Positions 3,881 to 39,600 of a DNA stretch of 64,000 bases are shown in pieces. The DNA is from Candidatus Altiarchaeota archaeon. Its GTDB lineage: Archaea > Altiarchaeota > Altiarchaeia > IMC4 > SCGC-AAA252-I15. The DNA lies in the NCBI GenBank assembly GCA_043813075.1, contig JBDRLL010000003.1, positions 54,606 through 118,605 on the forward strand, read 5' to 3'. The notes beneath the pieces were generated by a model. The model did no database searches and had not been told where the DNA came from. It saw only the letters and a list, made by a program, of their open reading frames with translations. The position numbers were made by a program, and so were the translations under genes. How positions within the stretch are numbered: position 1 is the first letter of the stretch; the number at the start of each line of letters is the position of its first letter.

Positions 3881-3886
3881 GAGTGT

Positions 3887-4204
3887 ATGGACAAAATATT
3901 CTTGGTTAAACTAGAGAGGACTAGGGCTTACTGGGACTATTATAAGATGATCTTCACTATGCTCTGCCTTGCGTGCACCGCGCTTATTGTTTCAACAGCC
4001 ATATTCTTCCACGCTGGGGCTCTGAGTTTCATAGCAGCAGTGGGTTTGAGCGCATTGTTCCTGCTTGTGATCCTCCTCCTGCTCGCGGTCATGTCGCTGA
4101 TGATATGGAGTTTTGAGAACAAGCACCTTCACGACCTGATAGCTGACGAGATAGAGGATGTCCAAGACACTCCAGAGGAGGAGCAGGAGTACCCGCTAGT
4201 CTAA
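3887..4204 (+). CDS. small membrane protein, unknown function
   Basis: 105 aa, two long hydrophobic helices, acidic C-terminus. Confidence 0.35.
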   Translation: MDKIFLVKLERTRAYWDYYKMIFTMLCLACTALIVSTAIFFHAGALSFIAAVGLSALFLLVILLLLAVMSLMIWSFENKHLHDLIADEIEDVQDTPEEEQEYPLV

Positions 4205-4869: not shown

Positions 4870-6132
4870 CTATTTCCCGAACTTTTTTAGCGCCTTCCTC
4901 AGCTCCTCGTGGTCTCTCGCGTAATCCTCTAGGGACACTCCCTCAAGCACCGCGTCAACCGCCTGCCGCATGCTCTTCGCCCCAGCAACCGTCCCATCCG
5001 GGTGGCCGTGAACGCCGCCGCCGGCCTGTATGATGACGTCCTTGCCCATGAAGTCCATCAAAGGCGGGACTATCCCCGCATGCATGCCGCCGCTGGAGAC
5101 AGGGAACACCGGCTTCATGCCATACCACTTCTGGGGCAGCACAAACTCGTCCATCCTAACGTCATCCTCCACTATGGCGTCGCGTATGGCCATAACCTCC
5201 CTCATGGGGCCCTCCATCTTGCCGACTGCAGTGCCGATGTGAAGCTGGTCGACCCCAATCATCCGGTATATCTTAGCCAACGCGAGCATCGTTATCCCAT
5301 GACTCTTGTTCCTGGTCAACGCGGCATGCATTGCCCTGTGGGCGTGCAAGACCAGGCCTATCTCATGCATCCTAACGGTCTGGACCGCGCTGAAACCAAG
5401 AGTCACCACGTCTATCATCGCGTAACGGCCGCCATGGTCCTTTATGAACTCCATGCGGCGTATCATCTCACTGGTCTCCGCGGTGATGTTCGCCATATAC
5501 ACCTTCTGCTCGCCGGTCTCAGAGTAAGCCTTGTCACGCGCCTCAAGAGTCTTGATCACCCGGTCTTCGAAACGGTTGAATGGCTGGTCTGTCAGGTTCT
5601 CATCGTCCTTGACTATGTCGCAGCCGCCAAGCCAGCTCCCATAGGCGACGTCAGCGTGCTGCTGTGAATCCAACCCCACCTTCGGCTTCACTATAGTCCC
5701 CACAAGAGGACGCTCACTGACCTCCAACACTTCCCTTACGCCGGAAACCCCAAAGTGAGGGCCCTTATGCGCCTTCAGCACCGCCCTCGGAAAGCCTATG
5801 TCCAGCAGCCGGAGGTTTTCAATGGCCTTCATGCCGTAGATGTTTCCGGCGATGCTGCTCATAATCTGCGGTACGTTAGAGGGCTCGAACAACTCGAGTG
5901 GATACGCTATCTTGGCCAGCCCCTTCTTCTCATCCATCCAGTACACGTGGGGCTGCAGGTTCTCACGCACCTCATCCTTCATCGTCGACACGTCAGTCCA
6001 AGTGCCGATGCTTGACTCGCCGGTAACATGCTCGCACGCCTTCGGGAAAGAGATGCCCTTAGAGGGCTCGATGTAGAACAATGTCAGCATATCATTGTCG
6101 TCCGGCGCATACTTCAGGTCGATGTAGGACAT
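4870..6132 (-). CDS. rbcL: ribulose-1,5-bisphosphate carboxylase/oxygenase large subunit, archaeal form III
   Basis: 420 aa; GGCDIVKDDENLTDQPF, GGMHAGIVP, VIIQAGGGVHGHPDG and the active-site Lys region are typical of form III RuBisCO. Confidence 0.9.
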   Translation of the reverse strand: MSYIDLKYAPDDNDMLTLFYIEPSKGISFPKACEHVTGESSIGTWTDVSTMKDEVRENLQPHVYWMDEKKGLAKIAYPLELFEPSNVPQIMSSIAGNIYGMKAIENLRLLDIGFPRAVLKAHKGPHFGVSGVREVLEVSERPLVGTIVKPKVGLDSQQHADVAYGSWLGGCDIVKDDENLTDQPFNRFEDRVIKTLEARDKAYSETGEQKVYMANITAETSEMIRRMEFIKDHGGRYAMIDVVTLGFSAVQTVRMHEIGLVLHAHRAMHAALTRNKSHGITMLALAKIYRMIGVDQLHIGTAVGKMEGPMREVMAIRDAIVEDDVRMDEFVLPQKWYGMKPVFPVSSGGMHAGIVPPLMDFMGKDVIIQAGGGVHGHPDGTVAGAKSMRQAVDAVLEGVSLEDYARDHEELRKALKKFGK

Positions 6133-18987: not shown

Positions 18988-20106
18988 GTGGAAGAGATGG
19001 GGGGGAAGTCCATACTAATACTTGAGCGTGACCCGCTCAAGAGAAAGCGGAGATCATTTGAGATAGGGTACTGGAGGTTCTCGGAGTATTTTGTATCCGA
19101 AAGGCTGCTCAAAGAGGGATGGCAGGTCACATCACTGGATGACGAGTCCATGCCACACTTATGGCTTTTGTTGAAGTGGATGTTCAGGAGGGAGTGGATT
19201 GCAGAGTATTACTTAAGCCTCTTTCAGACGGCCATGCTAGCCTTCTCGCGGAAATCCCATCCTATCGCATGCGCCTGGCAGGGGCCGGGTTTTGTGTTCG
19301 CGGCGATACGCAAGTTGCTTGCGAGAAGCAGCGAGACTAAGCTGATAGTGGTGATGTACTACAGTTACACCCACAACACCTTAAGACATGCCATCATACG
19401 CCGTGTACTCGGATGGGTCCTCCGTGATTCTACGACAATCGTGTGCATCACTTCCACCCAGAGGAAGGAGTTCGAAAAGTCTTTTCGCCTGAAGCCAGGA
19501 CAGGTAAGGTACTTAAGAAGGGGTGTTGACACCGTATTTTTCAGTCCGCTCGCGGAGGACCGTGAAACCGGGATTAACGACTATGTGTTTTGCACTGGAG
19601 AATACGACAGGGACGACAGACTCCTGCTAAGCGCATGCATGGACCTGGGTTTGAAACTAATTCGGGTGACGAAAGAGCCGGAATACGCTTTAGAAATATT
19701 GAGGATTGCTAAGAACATCGGCGTCAGGGAGATTGAAGTCCTGATGAAAGTGGACGCTGAAACTCTGCGCAGATTATACAGGAACTCGCTGTTTGTAGTG
19801 GTGCCTGTTAAGAATGACACCCATCCGGCTGGACTTACATCCTTACTGGAGTCCATGGCCTGTGGGAAGGCGACCATCGTCAGCGAGGGGTTGACTACAG
19901 AGGATTATGCTAGAGACATGGTGGACGCCGTTTATTTTAATCGAGGTGACTTGAAGAGTTTGAAGGATAGGATGGCTCTACTGCGTGATGACGCCCACCT
20001 GAGGGCAGTCATCGGAGGAAACGCCAGGAAAGCTGTGGAGGATAACCACCGAATCGAGGATGACGTTGATGGCCTGATGCGGGTGGTGGGGGGCCTCATG
20101 GCCTAG
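18988..20106 (+). CDS. GT-B glycosyltransferase (GT4/GT1 family)
   Basis: PAGLTSLLESMACGKATIVSEG matches the E-x7-E / nucleotide-sugar binding motif of GT4 enzymes. Confidence 0.7.
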   Translation: MEEMGGKSILILERDPLKRKRRSFEIGYWRFSEYFVSERLLKEGWQVTSLDDESMPHLWLLLKWMFRREWIAEYYLSLFQTAMLAFSRKSHPIACAWQGPGFVFAAIRKLLARSSETKLIVVMYYSYTHNTLRHAIIRRVLGWVLRDSTTIVCITSTQRKEFEKSFRLKPGQVRYLRRGVDTVFFSPLAEDRETGINDYVFCTGEYDRDDRLLLSACMDLGLKLIRVTKEPEYALEILRIAKNIGVREIEVLMKVDAETLRRLYRNSLFVVVPVKNDTHPAGLTSLLESMACGKATIVSEGLTTEDYARDMVDAVYFNRGDLKSLKDRMALLRDDAHLRAVIGGNARKAVEDNHRIEDDVDGLMRVVGGLMA

Positions 20107-20112
20107 TGTTTT

Positions 20113-21426
20113 TCATTTTACCAGTGATATTATAGGGTTCCTGCTCCCGCTCCTGGTTTTACTCAACCGGTCTTTTACCACAACATCCACATCAACTTCT
20201 TCGTTTATTGCCGATCTGATCTTGTCTTCAATCTCGCGCACCATAACCGTTGAGAATTTGATTCCAGGCAGTATCTCTAGCGTTAAGTGATCCCTAGAAT
20301 CCTGTATCATACAGAAGTCGCATATGCAGTCAGGATAGTCCAGGATAAGATGATAGGCCAGGTCCAGGAGAAATCCTGAAGAGAGGATTCTCCCGCTTGG
20401 GAGCGTGAAATAGTCGTTTTTCCTGCCTTGCAGCTTCTCCAACACCTTGAATTTTCTCCCGCAAGAACATTCCTTGGTGACTATGCTGGCAAGGTCTTTC
20501 TGGCGATACCTGATGAACGGCATGGCGTAATTTAGAAGATGGGTTCCAACAACCTCTCCAACAACACCCTCTGGAAGGTCTTGGCCGTTTTCATCGAGGA
20601 TTTCAACATAGTTTATATCCTCGAAGACGTGGTAGTTGTAGGCCCTGCATTGGGCTGCTATGCGGTTTAATTCCTCGGAGGAATACTCGTCTAGGATAGT
20701 GCAGTTAAAAAAATCCGCTAGTCTGCTTCTTTCACTGGGAAGTGACATCTCTGAATTCACGAATATTGCCTTAAGTCTTTTTGGTGGGGAAACCCCATTA
20801 TGCATCATATAAACCATTAACTCACTCAATACGGATGGATAGCACGAGAGTATGTCAGGATTTTGCCGGACTAATTCCCTTGTTATCGAGGGCACATCAT
20901 CAAGAGTCCATATGAAACGCACCCAGTATAGGCCCAATATCCTGTCCAACGGATGCTTTGACGAGTAGATGCTAACCTGCTTGTGCCATGGACGCCATCG
21001 AACCCCCATCGAATACGTCCTAAGTCCAGCCAGCATATAGTGCACAAGAGTGGACTTGTCGTATATCACCTTCAGCACCTTGCCTGATGAGCCGGAACTC
21101 GCTGAGACAATGCACTTGTCCGCGTCAACGCCTTTCGCTAGAACGCCTTCCGGGAAGTTGTCTATTAACTCATCCTTAGTTGTTAACGGTAGTCTCTTGA
21201 AGTCCTGGATGGTTTTAATATCACTTGGCTTTATACCAGCATGATCATACTTTTCCCTGTACAATGGGACGTTGACGTAAGCGTGTTCAACGATTTTTTT
21301 AAGCCTATCAAATTGGTATCTCTCGATTTCTTCCCGCGAACGGTATTGAAGTCTGAATGTGGGGAATAGACCCGGCAGTAACCGGGATACCACGTTGAAT
21401 CCGTCGCTTAGGGGCAGTGTTTTCAT
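20113..21426 (-). CDS. adenylate-forming enzyme, PaaK/CapK/coenzyme F390 synthetase-like
   Basis: RLPLTTKDELIDNFPEGVLA and SSGSSGK(V) match the phenylacetate-CoA ligase-like family. The start is moved from 21546 to the internal MKTLPLS Met at 21426, which shortens the overlap with the downstream gene. Confidence 0.6.
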   Translation of the reverse strand: MKTLPLSDGFNVVSRLLPGLFPTFRLQYRSREEIERYQFDRLKKIVEHAYVNVPLYREKYDHAGIKPSDIKTIQDFKRLPLTTKDELIDNFPEGVLAKGVDADKCIVSASSGSSGKVLKVIYDKSTLVHYMLAGLRTYSMGVRWRPWHKQVSIYSSKHPLDRILGLYWVRFIWTLDDVPSITRELVRQNPDILSCYPSVLSELMVYMMHNGVSPPKRLKAIFVNSEMSLPSERSRLADFFNCTILDEYSSEELNRIAAQCRAYNYHVFEDINYVEILDENGQDLPEGVVGEVVGTHLLNYAMPFIRYRQKDLASIVTKECSCGRKFKVLEKLQGRKNDYFTLPSGRILSSGFLLDLAYHLILDYPDCICDFCMIQDSRDHLTLEILPGIKFSTVMVREIEDKIRSAINEEVDVDVVVKDRLSKTRSGSRNPIISLVK

Positions 21427-21487
21427 TATTTTAGTAGAGTATATTAACAGGCCATAAAGAAAACTGGGGGGCAAGCCACAAAGCGTA

Positions 21488-22801
21488 GTGGCTATCGCAC
21501 CTGAGACCATAATGCATTGGGTACTGGGTCTTATTAAGTTTTTCACCGTATTCTTACCTGTGGTAGAATATGTGGAGACCTACGGGTGCGCTCTAAACCA
21601 GGCTGACAGCGAGACTATTCACGGACTGCTTGAGGAGCACGGGCTAGGCGAGTCTGGTGTTGTCGTGGTAAACACGTGCACAGTCAAGTCCCCGACCGAA
21701 AACAAGATACTGAAGAAACTCAGGGAATACGAGTCTGAGGGTAGACGCGTGGTTGTGGCAGGATGCCTGCCGGCAGCAAGACCAGGAGTAGCGGACGAGT
21801 TCCCATCCTTCTCATTCATCGGAACCAACACAGGAGACATAGTGGAGGCTGTGAGCGCTACGGCCGTGGGCGAAAGGTACGTTAATATCTCGGGTCCTGG
21901 CGAGAAAATCGGGCTGCCGCACGTGAACGAGAACCCTGTCGTCGGCATCGTGCCGATATCAGAGGGTTGTCTGGGAGGCTGCAGCTACTGTCTGACTAAG
22001 AAGGCTAGGGGGAGGCTAAAGTCATACAGCGTTGATGGTATCGTCCGCCGGATTGGCGAGTTCGCTTCTAAGGGTGTCAGGGAGATATGGCTTACGTCAC
22101 AGGATACTGGAGCCTATGGGAGAGATGTTGGATGCGACCTTGTGGAACTGCTTAACGCAGTCTGCATGGTGGAAGGCGACTTCAAGGTCAGGGTCGGCAT
22201 GATGAACCCTAACTATGCGTTGGAGATGCTGGACGGTTTGATTGACGCCTACAGGAACGTTAAGATTTACAGGTTCGCGCACATTCCAGTGCAGTCTGGC
22301 AGCGACAAAGTGCTTGAAGAGATGAACAGGCGATACTGTGTGAGAGATTTCAAGAGGATTGCTGAGAGATTCAGGGAAGAATTGAATGCCACTATATCGA
22401 CGGACGTTATTGCAGGCTATCCGACTGAGACCACTGAAGAATTCGACAAGACAGTGAGGCTGATAAGGGAGTTGAAGCCTGATGTGCTTAACGTGTCCAG
22501 ATACTGGCCGAGGCCTGGCACGGAAGCCGCTTCATTAAAGCAGCTGCCCGGTAGGGAGACCAAGAGGCGTTCCAGTATTATCGTCGACTTGTTCAGGGAA
22601 ACAGGGTTGGAGAGGAATAGATGGTGGATTGGGTGGAATGGCGAGTGCATCGCCTCGAAGGATAACGGGGATGGCACGTACACTGCGCGCAACGACTGGT
22701 ACAAGCCGATAATAGTTGATGGTGAAGGACTGTTAGGAAATAATCTGATGGTTGAGGTTACTGAGGCGACATACTATGACTTGAGGGGGGAAATCACCTA
22801 G
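21488..22801 (+). CDS. MiaB-like tRNA methylthiotransferase, archaeal e-MtaB type
   Basis: VYVETYGCALNQADSE (MTTase N domain), radical SAM CLGGCSYC, C-terminal TRAM-like region; start could be the second Met at 21512. Confidence 0.85.
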   Translation: MAIAPETIMHWVLGLIKFFTVFLPVVEYVETYGCALNQADSETIHGLLEEHGLGESGVVVVNTCTVKSPTENKILKKLREYESEGRRVVVAGCLPAARPGVADEFPSFSFIGTNTGDIVEAVSATAVGERYVNISGPGEKIGLPHVNENPVVGIVPISEGCLGGCSYCLTKKARGRLKSYSVDGIVRRIGEFASKGVREIWLTSQDTGAYGRDVGCDLVELLNAVCMVEGDFKVRVGMMNPNYALEMLDGLIDAYRNVKIYRFAHIPVQSGSDKVLEEMNRRYCVRDFKRIAERFREELNATISTDVIAGYPTETTEEFDKTVRLIRELKPDVLNVSRYWPRPGTEAASLKQLPGRETKRRSSIIVDLFRETGLERNRWWIGWNGECIASKDNGDGTYTARNDWYKPIIVDGEGLLGNNLMVEVTEATYYDLRGEIT

Positions 22802-24471: not shown

Positions 24472-24891
24472 CTATTCCCCCTTGAAGTATAAACGCTTAA
24501 TCTTCTTGCTGCTGTTCAATCCACCATCCCACTTGGATTGAATACGGACAACGCGTGCTTCAACACCCGCCTTCCTCAGCATATCCTCAACCTCTTCGAT
24601 AGTGAACGACTGGTCAGGGCCAAGCGTGACTATGTCGGGCTTCAACTCGCGTATGGGCTTCAGCATGTCGTCAGGGTCGCCGATGACCGCGTCATCCACC
24701 GACTTCAGCGACTTAACCACCTCAAGCCTCTGCCCCTCGGGTATGTGCACCACACCCTTCCGGTCTCCAGCAGTCCTGTCTGATGCGATTATGACCACAA
24801 GCCTGTCCCCCAGCCTACGGGACTCGCTTAGGTAAAGCAGATGGCCTGGATGCAGCACCTCGAAAACCCCTGTGGCAACGACTAGAACCAT
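24472..24891 (-). CDS. ribL: FAD synthetase RibL / cytidylyltransferase-family protein
   Basis: VLVVATGVFEVLHPGHLLYLSESRRLGDRLVVIIASD (HxGH nucleotidyltransferase motif); the start is moved to the internal Met because the upstream 62 codons lack homology and run into the divergent gene. Confidence 0.65.
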   Translation of the reverse strand: MVLVVATGVFEVLHPGHLLYLSESRRLGDRLVVIIASDRTAGDRKGVVHIPEGQRLEVVKSLKSVDDAVIGDPDDMLKPIRELKPDIVTLGPDQSFTIEEVEDMLRKAGVEARVVRIQSKWDGGLNSSKKIKRLYFKGE

Positions 24892-24907
24892 ATGAAGCTT
24901 ATATACG

Positions 24908-25354
24908 TTGAAGAATAAATGTATCTTCCAGATGAAGCCTGAAATCGAGTACAAGAGCCTTGAGGCGAAACAGTACGGAACCGGTGGAGAGCCGGCCAGC
25001 ATAAACAACAACAGCACTCTGACGAAAGTACTGGGCGAGGGGAAATACCTTAACGTGGGATTCATATTCAGCTGCAACTACGAGCCCAACGTGGGCGTCA
25101 TAAGAATCGAAGGCGACCTTAGGCTCGACGAGTCGGAGGACAACGTCAAGAGGGCTATGGACGAGTGGAACACGTCAGGACACAAGAAACTCCCGAAAGA
25201 CATCGCCGAGAAAGTCCACAACACGATACTGTCGAACTGCGTGCTGGAGGCAAGCATCCTGGCGAGGGACGTTAAACTACCGGTCCCACTGCCAGTCCCC
25301 CACGTCCAGATAGGCAGCGAATCAACGAAGGAGACTCAAAGTTATATCAGATGA
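24908..25354 (+). CDS. hypothetical protein
   Basis: 148-aa ORF upstream of rpl31e, same strand; no motif recognised. Confidence 0.35.
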   Translation: MKNKCIFQMKPEIEYKSLEAKQYGTGGEPASINNNSTLTKVLGEGKYLNVGFIFSCNYEPNVGVIRIEGDLRLDESEDNVKRAMDEWNTSGHKKLPKDIAEKVHNTILSNCVLEASILARDVKLPVPLPVPHVQIGSESTKETQSYIR

Positions 25355-25665: not shown

Positions 25666-26316
25666 ATGCACTACCAGCAGCTAAGCGTGCAGGGCGAGGA
25701 TTTCATAGGCCTCCTAGGACTCGCCACGGACAGGTATGCAGTACTCGCCAGGAAGTTCCCGGATACTGATGTTTTAGGCGTGGAGTCGCTTCGGACGAGG
25801 ATATACGCCACAAACCTTGTGGGAATGTTCTGCGCCGGGAACAGTAACGGGCTTCTAGTGCCGTACTTTGTTGGCGAGGACGAGATGCAGAGGCTTAGGG
25901 AGTTCCTGAACCCCATGGGCGTTGAGGTGGGGAAGATTGAGGACATCCACACTGCCCTCGGCAACATGATAGCATGCAACGACAAAGGCTGCGTGCTAAG
26001 CCCCAAGATACTGGACTACCATGTTGTGGAGGAGGTGCTGGGTGTCGAGGCTGTCTCCATGAGTCTTGGCGGGCTTGAGGAGGTTGGCGCATGCGTTTGC
26101 GCTACAAACAAGGGATTCATCGCATCACCCTACGCTGAAGGGCAGCTAAAGGCTTTGAGCGACGTCCTTAAAGTGGGGGGCGACGTTGGGACAGTGAATT
26201 TCGGGGTTTCTTTCGTTAAGTCAGGCCTGATTGCCAACAGCAACGGCTACATGACAGGGTCAAGGACTAGTGGGATAGAGGTTGGTGAGATAGAGTCTGC
26301 GTTAGGGTTCATCTAG
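25666..26316 (+). CDS. eif6: translation initiation factor 6 (aIF6)
   Basis: ALGNMIACNDKGCVLSPKI, VGACVCATNKGFIASP and the C-terminal EVGEIESALGFI align with archaeal aIF6 pentein repeats. Confidence 0.9.
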   Translation: MHYQQLSVQGEDFIGLLGLATDRYAVLARKFPDTDVLGVESLRTRIYATNLVGMFCAGNSNGLLVPYFVGEDEMQRLREFLNPMGVEVGKIEDIHTALGNMIACNDKGCVLSPKILDYHVVEEVLGVEAVSMSLGGLEEVGACVCATNKGFIASPYAEGQLKALSDVLKVGGDVGTVNFGVSFVKSGLIANSNGYMTGSRTSGIEVGEIESALGFI

Positions 26317-26796
26317 CTTCCTTACCTTATCCACTCCACCAGATTCCTCAATAACCTTAGCCACCGCATCAGGGACAAGACTCCTCCAGTCGCCATCTTC
26401 AACTATTCTCCTACGCACTTCGGTGGCAGAGTATAGTACGCGGTTGAAGAATGGCACCTCAACCACACTAAAGCCGGCTTGCCTGAAAAGGTTGGTTTCA
26501 CGTTCCGTATTCCCGTAATACGCGTCGAAATCAAGGTTTTCACTGATCCACTCCATCCACTTGCCATCATCCCCGAAATCCGGGATTCCGACCACCTCGA
26601 AGCCGACGTCAAGCACCAGCGAGTTGACTATCATATCCTCCCGCTCTTCGAACGAGAAGGGATTATCCTTCACCCCACTCTTGTTAGAACTCCCTACGCC
26701 GATCAACAGCTCCCCTGAGTGTGCGGCAGCGTATTCTATAAGGCTTACGTGACCCTTGTGGAGCGGCTGAAACCTGCCGACAACGAGCGCTTTCAT
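26302..26796 (-). CDS. nadM: nicotinamide-nucleotide adenylyltransferase (archaeal NadM)
   Basis: MKALVVGRFQPLHKGHVSLIEYA (HxGH) and SATEVRRRI motifs. Confidence 0.85.
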   Translation of the reverse strand: MKALVVGRFQPLHKGHVSLIEYAAAHSGELLIGVGSSNKSGVKDNPFSFEEREDMIVNSLVLDVGFEVVGIPDFGDDGKWMEWISENLDFDAYYGNTERETNLFRQAGFSVVEVPFFNRVLYSATEVRRRIVEDGDWRSLVPDAVAKVIEESGGVDKVRKLDEP

Positions 26797-26834
26797 CCCG
26801 GTTTAATTAATTCGGTTCCATTGTTAATATCATT
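26791..26834. repeat. direct repeat copy 1 (promoter plus first two codons of nadM)
   Basis: 34-nt core ggtttaattaattcggttccattgttaatatcat identical to 27711-27744; the upstream tttcat(c/t)cc segment also matches. Confidence 0.8.
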
Positions 26835-26902
26835 AATGGAATAAAGGCGTTGGAATACAATAGGATATAAAAGTTGATAGGAATACGAGGGAGGTAGATT
26901 AT

Positions 26903-27598
26903 ATGGGATGGGGGAAAAAGCCCGCCAAATCTCGTTTTTGCGGTGTAAGCTATCTGGGAGAGGTTCAGGCTAATGAGATTGAGTTTATTGCGGGAAAGTT
27001 TTTATCTGACAGGAAGGATCTTGTGCTAGCCGACTTCGGCTGCGGCGGAAAACCATACAAAAATGTGTTTGAGAGATACGTTTCGAAGCATATTGGGGTG
27101 GATATCCCGTTAAACGATGATGCCGACGTATTCTTTGACGAGAAGGGGAGAGCAGACCTTCCGGACAACTCAGTGGATGTTGTAGTGTCAACCCAGACGC
27201 TGGAACACGTTGATAACCCGGTGTTTTTCCTTGAGGAGATAAGGCGTGTATTGAAGCCCGGCGGACTGCTTATTACCTCAACACACGGATGTTTCTTCTA
27301 CCACCCATGCCCGGGAGACTTCTGGAGGTGGACTGCTGAAGGATTAAAAAAACAGATAACCAATTCAGGCTACCATATCATATATTTTAAGGGGGTGCTT
27401 GGTTTAACGGGCCTGTCAATCCAGTTGTTCCAGGCTGCATTAGAGGAAAAACTGCCAAAACACATCATCAAACCCGTTTTCACATATATTATGCAGGTTC
27501 TTATCGGAATAGCGGATAAGATAGACACCGATGAAGAGAAAAAACGGGATGCTTGCATATACTTTGTAGTCGCTTCAAAAGAAGATACTGGCAGATGA
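26903..27598 (+). CDS. class I SAM-dependent methyltransferase
   Basis: LADFGCGGKPY (motif I), VVVSTQTLEHV, RVLKPGGLL (post II/III); lies wholly between the two direct repeats. Confidence 0.7.
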   Translation: MGWGKKPAKSRFCGVSYLGEVQANEIEFIAGKFLSDRKDLVLADFGCGGKPYKNVFERYVSKHIGVDIPLNDDADVFFDEKGRADLPDNSVDVVVSTQTLEHVDNPVFFLEEIRRVLKPGGLLITSTHGCFFYHPCPGDFWRWTAEGLKKQITNSGYHIIYFKGVLGLTGLSIQLFQAALEEKLPKHIIKPVFTYIMQVLIGIADKIDTDEEKKRDACIYFVVASKEDTGR

Positions 27599-27700
27599 CT
27601 AGGAGATATTAGCAGAACAAGTGACACCACCATTTTCTTACAGTTACTGGATGGGTGAGATGATGGGTAGGATATCCTGCCGAACCCATCTACGACGGTA

Positions 27701-27744
27701 TTTCATTCCAGGTTTAATTAATTCGGTTCCATTGTTAATATCAT
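27701..27744. repeat. direct repeat copy 2 (duplicated nadM promoter/start fragment, now upstream of the herA-like gene)
   Basis: Same 34-nt core plus tttcattcca; includes a duplicated ATG AAA opening a 22-codon remnant ORF on the minus strand. Confidence 0.8.
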
Positions 27745-29257
27745 GGGTATCGGCCAAGTGATAGGCTCCACTACACTAAGGAGCTTTCGTTTTGTGATAA
27801 AGGAGGGTGAGGAGGGGAAGGTCAAGAGGGATGAGTTCGTCACAGTCAGGGAGTCTGTGACAGGCAACAGGATACTCGGCGTCGTCAAGGACATTGTGAC
27901 TTCAAACGAGCTACTGCCGGACGAGTTCGGCCGCGACCTCAGGCTCGCAGACATTATACTGAAGGAGGGTGAGTATCCCGTACCAATAGTCAAGGTGCTT
28001 GGGATACAGGGGAGGGATGGGCTGGAACTCCCACGCCATGGCATAAAGCCGGGTGCGGTGGTGGAGTTGGCTGAAGACGAGATGCTGAAGGAGATACTCC
28101 ATCAGGAGGGTGGCAGGAGTGCTTTGATAGGGACTTTGTCCACCAGGGAGACTGTGCCTGTGGAGGTTAACATAAACGAGCTCGTGTCCAGGCATTGCGC
28201 AGTCCTCGCGATGACTGGTGCGGGGAAAAGCTATACTGTCGGTGTTCTGATAGAGGAGATAATGAAGAAGAAAGGGTCTGTCTTAGTGTTCGACCTGCAT
28301 GGGGAGTTCATAAACGTGAGGATGAAGGACTCGGGGGTAAAGGTGTATGATGTGGAGGGTAAGGACATGATAAAAGTTAACGTGGACTCGCTTTCATCCG
28401 GGGACTACGTGAACCTAATGCCAGACCTGACGAACACGCAGAGAGACCTTCTGGACGAGGTCCTGAATCTCGCGGACAAGTTCTACGAGAAATACGACTT
28501 GAACACCATACTGGAAGTCCTCTCCATAATCTACGACACGAAGAAGGGCGAGGAGCCGGGGGAGATGATATTCAACAACAGGGAGATAACGACGATAACC
28601 AAGAAGGTTACGCTCCCCACGATAGGCGCGCTCATGAGGAGGATAAGGAGGCTCGACAGGATCGGCGTCTTCAGTGTGAAGGGGACTCCACTGAACGAGA
28701 TAGTCAGGGAGAACCAGCTGACGGTATTCAACCTGTCTGAGGCGGACGAGAAGGTTAGTGAAATCATAGTGGCCGCCATGCTGAGGAACATATTCGACGC
28801 AAGGAAAAAATTCATGAGAGGAGGGGGCGGAGAGGGCCTGCCGACCCCGACGTTCATAGTCATCGAGGAGGCGCACAACTTCGCTCCTAGAGTGGTCGAG
28901 GCGGACTACATACCGTCCAGGGGGATAATAAGGAAGATAGCGAGGGAGGGGAGGAAGTTCGGCGTGGGGTTGTGCGTTGTGAGCCAGAGGCCTAACAAAC
29001 TGGATTCAGACGTGCTTAGCCAGTGCAACACGCAGTTCATAATGAAGATGGTGAATCCCGTCGACCAGGAGTATATAAGGCAGAGCGTGGAATCTGTTAC
29101 GGAAGATATTGTGAGGGATTTACCGAGCCTTTCAAGGGGCGAGGCCATCATATCCGGCAGCGCCATAAACCTGTCGGTACCCGCTAGGATACGTGAGAGG
29201 GAGACGGCGGTCGGCGGTCAGGATATTGATATCGTAGGTGTGTGGAATGGCAATTGA
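27743..29257 (+). CDS. HerA-like (DUF87) ATPase
   Basis: Walker A AMTGAGKSYTVGVL, Walker B FIVIEEAHNF, and VVSQRPNKLDSDVLSQCNTQFI (HerA/FtsK-like arginine finger region). Confidence 0.75.
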   Translation: MGIGQVIGSTTLRSFRFVIKEGEEGKVKRDEFVTVRESVTGNRILGVVKDIVTSNELLPDEFGRDLRLADIILKEGEYPVPIVKVLGIQGRDGLELPRHGIKPGAVVELAEDEMLKEILHQEGGRSALIGTLSTRETVPVEVNINELVSRHCAVLAMTGAGKSYTVGVLIEEIMKKKGSVLVFDLHGEFINVRMKDSGVKVYDVEGKDMIKVNVDSLSSGDYVNLMPDLTNTQRDLLDEVLNLADKFYEKYDLNTILEVLSIIYDTKKGEEPGEMIFNNREITTITKKVTLPTIGALMRRIRRLDRIGVFSVKGTPLNEIVRENQLTVFNLSEADEKVSEIIVAAMLRNIFDARKKFMRGGGGEGLPTPTFIVIEEAHNFAPRVVEADYIPSRGIIRKIAREGRKFGVGLCVVSQRPNKLDSDVLSQCNTQFIMKMVNPVDQEYIRQSVESVTEDIVRDLPSLSRGEAIISGSAINLSVPARIRERETAVGGQDIDIVGVWNGN

Positions 29258-29492: not shown

Positions 29493-29499
29493 CGAGTAC

Positions 29500-30345
29500 T
29501 CACACAACCCTTCTCCTCTGCTGAGGAGGCTGCTCCCTTCTAATGACCCTTCCATCAATTACGTTCGGGTCCGGCCGGTCATGCCTTATCTGATCGGCAT
29601 GATGAGTCAGCATTTCCGGGCCTTTATGCCCTATCGCAGGCTGCGTACTTACTTCAGATAATCCGGAGAAGTCGGTTGAAAAACCCTCCCGTTGGACTGT
29701 CTTATCACATAATTGGACGAGCCTCTGGAATCTGCCCCATGTGGATGCACCACCCTTCAGAAAATCATCTATAGGCTCCGAGTTGGCTGGATCTGGAAGC
29801 ATGCCGAATTCTGAGAAGCCGAAGCTGTTATATAGGAAGTTGAAGACCTGGGTTGCCATGGCCTGCTGCTGTGGGTCTGCGATCGGCGGAACCTCCTCAG
29901 CCCGCTGTGTTGATGCATCAACCCCCCTGTGCAAAGCAGACATCTCGCTCTCGGTGAATGGACCCAAAGCCCTTACGGGACCGAGCTCGCCATTACCATC
30001 CAAGTCCATCTTGAAGTTCCTCCACAACCGGAAGCCTTTACCTGTCCGCGGGTCATATAATTCGAAGGCTATGTGATTATGCTCCATCCCACCCTGGGGG
30101 AGGGAGATGTTAGCGTCCATGTATATTGTCGCCTGTGGGCTCCGCCATACCTCATCGTGAACAGTCCTTAATGGCTCAGGTGGCGAGACATCCATAGCAA
30201 GCCTCTGGCGGGCAGTCACCCATTTGAAGGCAGGGCCTCTGCCATATTTTGCGCCAGAGTGCTCAAAACTGTTGCTGACGAGAACCTCGCCCGGCTCCTT
30301 GTCGTCAACCCCCCTCTCCATCCTAGAGTACCTTGAGATAGCCAT
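29500..30345 (-). CDS. hypothetical protein
   Basis: 281-aa ORF, no recognisable motif; divergent from the next unknown. Confidence 0.4.
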   Translation of the reverse strand: MAISRYSRMERGVDDKEPGEVLVSNSFEHSGAKYGRGPAFKWVTARQRLAMDVSPPEPLRTVHDEVWRSPQATIYMDANISLPQGGMEHNHIAFELYDPRTGKGFRLWRNFKMDLDGNGELGPVRALGPFTESEMSALHRGVDASTQRAEEVPPIADPQQQAMATQVFNFLYNSFGFSEFGMLPDPANSEPIDDFLKGGASTWGRFQRLVQLCDKTVQREGFSTDFSGLSEVSTQPAIGHKGPEMLTHHADQIRHDRPDPNVIDGRVIRREQPPQQRRRVV

Positions 30346-30417
30346 TTTAGGTTAGAATCTGGGAATGCATGGAATAAATATCATGTTTTATCCGCCTATT
30401 GCGGTAATTATATCATC

Positions 30418-31551
30418 ATGGCCGCGTTAATGAGCCCTGCACCAGCGGACCCGCGACAGCAGGCGGGTATTGACGACCGTCAGACGCAGAGGGTGTTGAG
30501 GATAGTCTTCGTGCAGGGGCCTCACACCTCTGAGAGGGAGGCTTTGGCGCTGAAGGATGCGATAGGCAGGGCGGACGTGTTCAGCCCGGAATACAACTTC
30601 GGTTCAGAGAGCGGGTTAAGGCAGGTGGAAGACAGCTACCGCCGGATGTTCGGCCTGCTTGCTGAGGGGAAGAACGCGGAATTCGATGGGAGGCGTGATC
30701 TGGAGCGGAGCAGGGAGATGGCACACGGGACATGCCCGCGTTTCGTGAACACGCAAGACGACCTGATTTACGAGGCTAGGACGCCGGTTTTATATGTCGA
30801 GAGATTCAGCGACGAGGAAGCCCGGAGATACGCTAGGATGCAGCATCAGACCATGGCTCTCGCTAGGGACTCTATCGTCAGCTTCATAAGCGGGGACTTC
30901 AATGGGGCGTTGAATAACACGCTACAGCAGGTGTCTATGGAAGCCATGCTGGAGATGGCGAGGGAGGACAACATCATACGCAATGCCCAGCAGGCCATCC
31001 CAAGGATATTGGAACACTATCCGATGCTTGCGAGAAAGAGCGAGCTAACATATGTGGTCTCCCTCGGTTCGACACACACAAGGCCGGGTGAGGAATTATC
31101 AAGACTACAGTCAGACAGGTTCAGGGTGGAGGTGTTGAACGAGCATGCGGACGTGCTTCCCACAACAAGGACTGAGCTGATAAGGGGGATAAAAACAGGT
31201 GGCGTCCCACAACTGGATGACGTCGCAGAACAGCTGGGGAGATGTGTTCTAGAGGACTTGACGAAAATGTTCGTCCCGAAAGACCATCCACTCCAGGAAA
31301 GCTATCTTGCAAAAGAACTGACATTAAAGGCGATGGCATCCAGAGTACCGCTGGATGATATCAGGGGACTGTGCAGGACTCTCGGAGAGGGTGGTAGGGA
31401 GGGGAGCGCCTCAACAGACAAGCTTAAAGAACTATTGAACGGGGTATACGCTAGGAACGGTGTTGAAGTAGACCTCGACTTCAACGTCACTCAGGTGAAC
31501 AGGATGCTGCAGACATCCTACCCATCGTTTGGTGAAAGATACCGGATATAA
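30418..31551 (+). CDS. hypothetical protein
   Basis: 377-aa ORF, helical/charged, no motif recognised. Confidence 0.4.
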   Translation: MAALMSPAPADPRQQAGIDDRQTQRVLRIVFVQGPHTSEREALALKDAIGRADVFSPEYNFGSESGLRQVEDSYRRMFGLLAEGKNAEFDGRRDLERSREMAHGTCPRFVNTQDDLIYEARTPVLYVERFSDEEARRYARMQHQTMALARDSIVSFISGDFNGALNNTLQQVSMEAMLEMAREDNIIRNAQQAIPRILEHYPMLARKSELTYVVSLGSTHTRPGEELSRLQSDRFRVEVLNEHADVLPTTRTELIRGIKTGGVPQLDDVAEQLGRCVLEDLTKMFVPKDHPLQESYLAKELTLKAMASRVPLDDIRGLCRTLGEGGREGSASTDKLKELLNGVYARNGVEVDLDFNVTQVNRMLQTSYPSFGERYRI

Positions 31552-39066: not shown

Positions 39067-39600
39067 TTATCTGGTCAGTAACTTCAGATGCCTGTCAACC
39101 CACTGATTCCTATCCTGTAGATACAAGATGACCTCAGCGAACTGGTCGTTAACATCAAAATAACGCAGGGTTATGCCATTATCCCTGTAAGGAACAAGTT
39201 CCGTTATCCGATAATGAGGGATGTATAATATGGACTCACCGCTGCTGGGAGGCTCCGCCAGAACACCAATGTTGGTCAAGTAGATGTCTGAACGAATGGG
39301 GTTTAACGGAAAATCCTGCTCTCCAATACTTACAAAAACAACATAGCTTGAATTCCCAGAAGACGTTAAGAGAACCTTCTCCTGCTCCGGGAAATACAGC
39401 TTCTTCTCCTGATTGAAATAATTGTAGAGACCGAAAATGGATAAAACACCAGCAAAAGCGCCAACAATCAGCGCGATAACACCCATATCCAACGCTGAAC
39501 CGAACACGTAGATGAAGAACACCAGGCAAGCCAATAGAGCCAGCATAATGACGCCTGAAAACCTGCCTGACATGAAATTCAAGTTCATTTTAAAACCCAA
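39067..39600 (-). CDS. membrane protein, unknown function
   Basis: 177 aa, two N-terminal TM helices then a soluble domain. Confidence 0.4.
   Translation of the reverse strand: MGFKMNLNFMSGRFSGVIMLALLACLVFFIYVFGSALDMGVIALIVGAFAGVLSIFGLYNYFNQEKKLYFPEQEKVLLTSSGNSSYVVFVSIGEQDFPLNPIRSDIYLTNIGVLAEPPSSGESILYIPHYRITELVPYRDNGITLRYFDVNDQFAEVILYLQDRNQWVDRHLKLLTR

Follow-up and report, generated by a model that had tools for sequence, protein, structure and literature searches.

In a 64-kb stretch of DNA from a Candidatus Altiarchaeota metagenome-assembled genome (MAG), hereafter the window, which is also the extent of every window-wide count given below, a gene for a class I S-adenosylmethionine (SAM)-dependent methyltransferase (MTase) lies between two copies of the short bidirectional promoter that separates nadM, encoding an archaeal nicotinamide-nucleotide adenylyltransferase, from a divergent gene for a herA-like ATPase. 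In the closest relatives, nadM and herA are direct neighbors and the promoter is present once. The insertion is recent and horizontal, and we consider it likely that it reflects a one-off, lineage-specific capture of a foreign MTase segment, with the whole promoter duplicated during repair.

The duplicated promoter and its empty counterpart in relatives

Repeat copy 1 (26791-26833, 43 nt, TTTCATCCC-GGTTTAATTAATTCGGTTCCATTGTTAATATCAT) comprises the working promoter and start of nadM, while copy 2 (27701-27744, 44 nt, TTTCATTCCAGGTTTAATTAATTCGGTTCCATTGTTAATATCAT) is the working promoter of the herA-like gene. The copies share a perfect core of 34 nt (26800-26833 and 27711-27744) at a start-to-start distance of 911; they differ by C (26797) versus T (27707) and by an extra A at 27710 in copy 2, and both differences adjoin the nadM start, a dead duplicate in the case of copy 2. 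A first-pass annotation of this DNA had described the repeat and its 34-nt core; both are real, except that copy 1 ends at 26833 and not at 26834. At its left end, copy 1 includes codons 1 and 2 of nadM (TTTCAT, reading ATG AAA on the minus strand, with the nadM CAT at 26794-26796), and at its right end, copy 2 terminates in the first two bases (AT) of the herA-like ATG at 27743. Allowing up to three mismatches, the core occurs twice in the window, as against 0 matches in 100 dinucleotide-preserving shuffles, and a repeat search returned the pair as the sole long non-coding direct repeat of the window. Because the flanks past the repeat edges have no homology to each other in local-alignment shuffle tests (p=0.58 left, p=0.73 right), the duplication is sharply bounded. 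Between the copies lie 867 nt (26834-27700) with one substantial open reading frame (ORF), that of the MTase, in line with the earlier description of the interval. A search of genome and metagenome contig collections with the 34-nt core pattern gave 0 matches, a result that is uninformative, since the source MAG is evidently absent from them and a Joint Genome Institute (JGI) contig of L005 known to match the relaxed pattern was missed. Exact searches with the MTase and HerA-like protein sequences of the window likewise led to no contig. The promoter pattern had no match among viral contigs.

To place this arrangement among related genomes, we scanned the GTDB representative genomes, which provided about 40 further Altiarchaeota loci. 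In every sampled relative that has both genes in view, ~35 distinct Altiarchaeota loci in all, nadM and herA are divergent neighbors, with HerA proteins 61-86% identical and a gap that is mostly 30-63 nt, and tblastn found no match to the MTase at the nadM-herA locus in any of them; the gene is thus seen in none of these relatives at the same place, with or without repeats. The closest lineages are L001-L003 (L001 HerA 86% identical), L004-L007/L009 (83%), and L008 (83%). In all three, nadM lies directly beside herA in divergent orientation with a start-to-start gap of exactly 35 nt, as would be expected if the first-pass annotation was right that a gene had come between them, and this gap corresponds to the repeat unit in a base-for-base alignment (for example, CAT-CCTGGTTTAATTAATTCAGTTCCAATGTTAATATT-ATG in L001). 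Homology to the relatives extends leftward into nadM from copy 1 only and rightward into herA from copy 2 only. Copy 1 retains the ancestral 35 nt from the nadM CAT to the former position of the herA ATG, and removal of the insert and one repeat copy in silico again leaves a gap of exactly 35 nt. Because the site is an empty 35-nt gap in close relatives and the MTase is missing from all ~35 loci, the MTase insertion is the derived, lineage-specific state.

In the inserted segment (26834-27700, plus strand), the MTase ORF is preceded by a 5' region of 69 nt and followed by a 3' tail of 102 nt. The ORF (26903-27598, plus strand) encodes a class I SAM-dependent MTase of 231 aa, identical to NCBI MFH1402799.1, which matches PF08241 at 55.7 bits (cut-off 21.2; E=8e-15) and PF13489 at 46.7 bits (cut-off 27). 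The glycine-rich motif I, D/E-x-GCG-G-K, is invariant in the alignment of its homologues, and no specific NCBIfam equivalog was found at cut-off. The GC content of the insert is 0.41-0.48, compared with 0.50-0.56 in the flanks; for the ORF itself, it is 0.455 (z=-2.6), and the value at third codon positions (GC3), 0.498 (z=-2.8), is the lowest of the 56 window ORFs, which marks the gene as compositionally foreign next to its neighbors. Among 5.8 billion clustered proteins, the MTase forms a singleton cluster whose nearest homologue is 46% identical, and no Altiarchaeota homologue above this identity is present there. The insert DNA is unlike any other part of the window and unlike 168 further loci compared with it. 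Taken together, the sequence data indicate that the MTase is of foreign origin.

Of the homologues whose genomic context could be read, the three closest all lie within polysaccharide-synthesis clusters: P0142, which clusters at 90% identity with P0002, the 46% homologue; P0004 (43%); and P0003 (40%). Their neighbors include GT4 glycosyltransferases, a Wzx flippase, a Wzy polymerase, a Wzm/Wzt transporter, and TylF-type methyltransferases. Based on this context, the inserted gene probably encodes a glycan or small-molecule/sugar O-methyltransferase that has been parted from its usual cluster. A viral source was considered and rejected; viral contigs gave only generic partial MTase matches of 30-47%, and the neighbor genes carry no PHROG phage-family signal.

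Promoter architecture and its consequences for the three genes

We examined promoter conservation in 12 relatives with good alignment at both start codons. Relative to the herA ATG, positions -30..-23 form an A/T block, with 100% A/T at -29..-25, and a second occupies -30..-24 relative to the nadM ATG; both are also present in both copies in the window. In archaea, the TATA box normally lies at such a position when the transcript begins at or beside the ATG. The shared 35-nt unit would accordingly hold two TATA boxes, each ~26-30 nt upstream of its own predicted leaderless start, and these would be interleaved because the start codons are only ~37 nt apart. In the window, the putative herA-like box (TTTAATTAA, 27713-27721, plus strand) is centered 26 nt upstream of the ATG, and the putative nadM box (TTAATAT, or ATATTAA on the minus strand; 26824-26830, minus strand) lies ~28-34 nt upstream of the nadM ATG, both being assigned from conservation in the relatives. 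Within the unit, each box lies close to the start of the opposite gene, at 6-14 nt from the nadM ATG for the herA box and at 2-8 nt from the herA ATG for the nadM box. The transcription starts predicted from these positions are ~26796-26800 (minus strand), ~26832 (plus strand), ~27743 (plus strand), and ~27706-27710 (minus strand).

This layout resembles that of other archaeal bidirectional promoters in being a compact, A/T-rich divergent region with TATA ~25 nt upstream of the starts (PMC6640164). In Pyrococcus furiosus, however, differential RNA sequencing (dRNA-seq) revealed one shared TATA with starts ~50 nt apart (PMC6640164), whereas here the ATGs are ~37 nt apart and two boxes are implied, from conservation and not from mapped starts. 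A 35-nt, two-TATA, doubly leaderless promoter is thus predicted to be conserved across Altiarchaeota, an uncultivated phylum without promoter data.

With the boxes arranged in this way, a simple insertion anywhere within the 35 nt would come between one gene, or both, and the corresponding TATA box, and only a duplication of the whole unit would leave both neighbor genes expressed. The event that survived is one that duplicated the entire promoter unit. The duplication extends from codon 2 of nadM to the second base of the herA ATG, which is very nearly the minimal span that saves both genes.

Each duplicated half of the promoter now faces new sequence. The copy-1 duplicate of the herA box (TTTAATTAA, 26802-26810, plus strand), positioned by the same conservation, points toward the MTase with a predicted start at ~26832 and a 71-nt leader. 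The first-pass annotation had this element driving the MTase, and it is plausible that it does. On the other hand, the insert has a TATA-like box of its own (ATATAAAA, 26865-26872, plus strand), a candidate alternative promoter read from the sequence and centered ~34 nt upstream of the MTase ATG, which could yield a near-leaderless MTase transcript with a start near 26895; use of the duplicated promoter by the MTase is for this reason unproven. A Shine-Dalgarno-like GGAGGT (26890-26895, plus strand), also read from the sequence, lies 7 nt upstream of the MTase ATG, within the 71-nt leader predicted from the copy-1 box, and only a long leader would include it.

At the other end of the insert, an intact second copy of the nadM box (27735-27741, minus strand) stands ahead of the dead duplicate of the nadM start (ATG AAA), which runs into the insert as a 20-codon ORF (27644-27706, minus strand; translation MKYRRRWVRQDILPIISPIQ followed by a stop codon). 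The dead start had been recognized before, together with a supposed 22-codon remnant of nadM. The TTTCAT duplicate stands, but the ORF has 20 codons and no nadM homology beyond the six duplicated nt (shuffle p=0.58 and 0.73), so that it cannot be counted as a nadM relic; as judged from these comparisons, it is insert sequence read in frame and not a gene remnant.

Route of insertion and alternative explanations

Searches for the hallmarks of mobile elements yielded the direct repeats flanking the insert, as attL and attR would, and little else. An inverted-repeat scan of 26780-27760 found no terminal inverted repeats at the insert ends, and no integrase, transposase, Cas1, or IntI domain was detected in the 27 ORFs of at least 120 aa between 12934 and 41082, 10 of which have no Pfam match of any kind. 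For the insert 3' tail joined to copy 2, the folding energy of -12.7 kcal/mol is no better than that of shuffled sequence (z=-0.22), and by this measure there is no attC-like fold. Integrons are recognized by IntI/attI or by a cluster of at least two attC sites within 4 kb (PMC9668308), whereas here there is a single gene, with no IntI-like domain nearby. The window contains no tRNA gene, and Rfam gave no match at the site; a tRNA or noncoding RNA gene was on these grounds dropped as an integration target. These results, with the empty site in relatives and the foreign composition, bear out the first-pass view that a gene entered a divergent promoter and left a duplicated footprint there, without an integrase or transposase nearby (the domain scan covering 12.9-41 kb).

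The comparison with known systems is one of partial likeness. As with insertion sequence (IS) elements, miniature inverted-repeat transposable elements (MITEs), and casposons, the insert is flanked by a direct duplication of formerly single-copy host sequence; their duplications, however, are 2-15 nt long, whereas here the duplication is 43-44 nt, there is one copy with no terminal inverted repeats, transposase, or Cas1, and the cargo, unlike theirs, is one ordinary metabolic-type gene. Archaeal integrated elements with tyrosine recombinases of the SSV, pNOB8, and pTN3 types (PMC8371274) also have direct repeats of tens of bp around compositionally deviant DNA, but the present insert is <1 kb, has neither an intact nor a split integrase and no tRNA target, and its repeat, in contrast to att sites, is exactly the host bidirectional promoter, bounded by two start codons. 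Integron cassettes, including archaeal ones (PMC9668308), are likewise single gene units of ~0.9 kb behind a resident promoter; here, there is no attC hairpin, IntI/attI, or cassette array, and integron insertion leaves its target unduplicated.

The footprint does not seem to have been left by a transposase or an integrase. We propose that a low-GC, 867-bp foreign segment was captured into the 35-nt nadM/herA-like bidirectional promoter, either at a double-strand break whose staggered ends of ~43 nt were filled in on both sides of the captured DNA, or through a replicative template switch that re-copied the promoter after the foreign DNA. The outcome would be that nadM retains copy 1 and the herA-like gene copy 2, each at the correct spacing. 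A repair-type event is favored because the host duplication of 43-44 nt is sharp, there are no element-specific ends, and the insert is single-copy. Staggered-break fill-in and template switching (of the fork stalling and template switching/microhomology-mediated break-induced replication, FoSTeS/MMBIR, type, or as paired-nick repair) likewise produce a duplication whose length is that of the stagger or the re-copied stretch, with no element-specific ends. Most descriptions of such insertions come from eukaryotes and editing experiments, and we know of none documented for Altiarchaeota. Several points weigh against this proposal: the two-copy count of the core covers 64 kb of the genome only; the junctions are known from the metagenome assembly alone, without reads; the donor sequence was not found, so the junctions offer no microhomology readout; a stagger of 43 nt is far longer than typical target duplications; and a Campbell-type integration of a circle with the same 43 nt leaves an identical footprint.

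In that last alternative, a small circle (~911 bp, or larger and later trimmed) carrying the 43-nt promoter would have integrated by homologous recombination or through a recombinase acting in trans, and the repeats would be attL and attR. Direct repeats of tens of bp are indeed the standard footprint of attP x attB recombination (PMC8371274), the perfect 34-nt core is long enough for recombination, and the product is indistinguishable from a target duplication. We nevertheless hold this route to be unlikely, as an integrase is missing from the insert and from its surroundings to ~12 kb, the target is not a tRNA gene, and the repeat edges match two start codons, as would be expected of selection on a host promoter more than of a recombinase site; moreover, low-GC foreign DNA would already have to carry the exact promoter of the host lineage, which merely moves the problem back one step. 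The same end state would result from a tandem duplication of the promoter by slippage or unequal crossing-over, with the foreign gene landing later between the copies, where a tandem duplicate offers a neutral landing site between complete promoters. This would, however, take two rare events at the same 43 nt, and none of the ~35 relatives has a tandem promoter free of an insert, which leaves the two-step route with a slim chance.

With the repeat taken either for a target-site duplication or for a stretch of element DNA, a nonautonomous mobile element (a MITE, an IS derivative, an integron-type cassette, or a casposon relic) would account for a single cassette-size gene between direct repeats, and integron cassettes are known in archaeal MAGs (PMC9668308). 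A transposon or MITE was rejected, as terminal inverted repeats are lacking and further copies are absent from the window and from the 474 kb of Altiarchaeota loci searched, and an integron cassette was rejected on the fold result. With no attC-like structure, transposase, IntI, or Cas1 either, and with a repeat that is the orthologous promoter of the host and not element sequence, at 43-44 nt against the usual 2-15 nt, we judge any such element to be highly improbable. An assembly artefact or population variant seems to us just as improbable; here, a 34-nt de Bruijn node would have spliced in an unrelated fragment or an excised circle, and the filled form may be a minor allele. The source is a MAG known without reads, which leaves room for such an error, but the insert is far from either end of a 189,956-bp contig, any foreign fragment spliced in would have to carry the host promoter on both sides, and the copies differ at their left edges, as fits two real junctions. 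Finally, the MTase might be ancestral at the site and have been lost repeatedly in the relatives, given that recombination between 34-nt direct repeats would delete the gene cleanly. Independent losses would then be needed in all ~35 sampled lineages, for a gene that has the most deviant GC3 in the window and no Altiarchaeota homologue above 46% identity, and we give this possibility next to no weight.

A second event at the same locus bears on the capture-and-repair proposal. In L032, an independent 134-bp insertion at the herA start (L032:3865-4020) has a perfect 17-nt target duplication, TGGAGATTGGACAGGTA (19/20 counting the ATG), and no transposon ends. In a k=16 scan of the 474 kb of Altiarchaeota loci, L032 was the sole comparable intergenic case, the other matches being coding repeats or paralogues. 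The two cases show that at the nadM-herA locus, target duplications of different lengths can accompany insertions that have no transposon ends. Such variation in length (44 nt here and 17-20 nt in L032) is also a feature of fill-in and template-switch events, and the unequal lengths speak against a dedicated enzyme whose stagger is fixed, although there are only two events. The edges of the duplication in the window lie within a few bases of the two predicted leaderless starts, which raises a more speculative idea, to which we assign only a small probability: breaks arising where the two initiation complexes of an ultra-compact archaeal bidirectional promoter oppose each other, followed by fill-in, could be a recurrent, recombinase-free means of gene gain. 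If so, the newcomer would automatically gain a promoter; the by-products would be a leaderless 20-codon micro-ORF behind an orphaned promoter half and a 34-nt repeat pair permitting clean excision; and the 17-20-nt duplication at the L032 herA start would be a second instance.

The locus is a neat illustration and not a new kind of system, and the gene that it gained is an ordinary, horizontally acquired accessory gene. It provides a natural example of how a compact archaeal genome can admit a foreign gene in an overlapping bidirectional promoter while both neighbors are kept.

Neighboring genes and other variable spots

The nadM gene (26302-26796, minus strand, 164 aa) was identified by NCBIfam, by Pfam CTP_transf_like, and by its orthologues beside herA in relatives. 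It scores 131.8 bits against NCBIfam NF002243 (cut-off 127), passing at the subfamily level, and 124.6 against TIGR01527, under the equivalog cut-off of 181.2. The herA-like gene (27743-29257, plus strand) encodes a 504-aa ATPase with HAS-barrel and DUF87 domains (PF01935 at 2.9e-41, plus PF09378), identical to NCBI MFH1402800.1. For this protein and for the MTase alike, a single NCBI entry is identical, and both entries belong to the 189,956-bp Candidatus Altiarchaeota MAG contig. We call it herA-like because these domains are present, yet the protein scores under all NCBIfam HerA equivalog cut-offs (264.9 versus 970). No NurA gene was seen adjoining it. The N-terminal residues M1, G4, Q5, V6, I7, and G8 of HerA are invariant across 21 homologues, and the start codon of the herA-like gene is therefore fixed.

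Other length variation occurs around the same gene pair. The upstream repeat copy in L032 keeps its ATG, and a 1-nt frameshift gives a 17-codon ORF; directly after it come a perfect hairpin of 13-14 bp (3886-3916) and a T-run, which place herA behind an attenuator-like leader. The hairpin sequence is unique among the loci compared. No promoter repeats were found in the larger nadM-herA gaps of L018, L035/L037, L014, L034, L039, L013, L021, and L042. Two of these gaps contain small genes in nadM orientation between nadM and the shared promoter, again with no repeat: a 171-aa lipoprotein-like gene (L018:3441-3956) and a 130-aa membrane protein gene (L035/L037:3554-3946). Both join the nadM transcription unit and share its promoter, and because they are repeat-free, the site has repeatedly gained genes by a different route. 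In L021, the nadM-herA gap is 130 nt (L021:1096-1225) and holds an ancestral-type promoter and then a ~97-nt extra segment before the herA ATG, bounded by the inverted repeat GTACTTCCGA ... TCGGAAGTAC and resembling a small hairpin-type insertion. On the same Altiarchaeales MAG contig, 110 nt are perfectly repeated in tandem at a period of 113 nt (L021:6152-6374).

On the other side of nadM, the eIF6-nadM junction is variable. The genes overlap in the window (26302-26316), while in relatives the position holds a 514-aa spermine-synthase-like gene (L008:3937-5481), a 540-aa gene without known function (L004:3847-5469), or a 42-aa ORF (L001:5133-5473). In L004/L005, an identical 37-nt stretch occurs at 1342-1378 and 5351-5387, in the 5' parts of two minus-strand genes without known function that lie 4 kb from each other. 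The pair, to which the extra gene at the eIF6-nadM junction belongs, are probably paralogues related by recent duplication or gene conversion.

A second variable spot in the window (29493-31528) lies between the chorismate mutase and prephenate dehydratase genes. It holds two divergent ORFs, 29500-30345 (minus strand, 281 aa) and 30418-31551 (plus strand, 377 aa), with no Pfam, NCBIfam, or PHROG match, and no flanking repeats were found at this insertion. The two aromatic-pathway genes are adjacent or overlapping in L004, and a radical-SAM/SPASM gene lies between them in L001. Two low-GC ORFs of the window without a Pfam or PHROG match, 20113-21546 (minus strand; GC 0.457, z=-2.6) and 39067-39600 (minus strand; GC 0.438, z=-3.3), may be further foreign acquisitions; the former adjoins a GT1/GT4 glycosyltransferase gene (18988-20106). 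In L001, L004, and L008, a CBS-domain gene separates Trm5 from a RibL-like cytidylyltransferase; the window lacks this gene, and the 201-aa ORF listed at 24472-25077 (minus strand) probably begins at an internal Met, near MVLVVATG.

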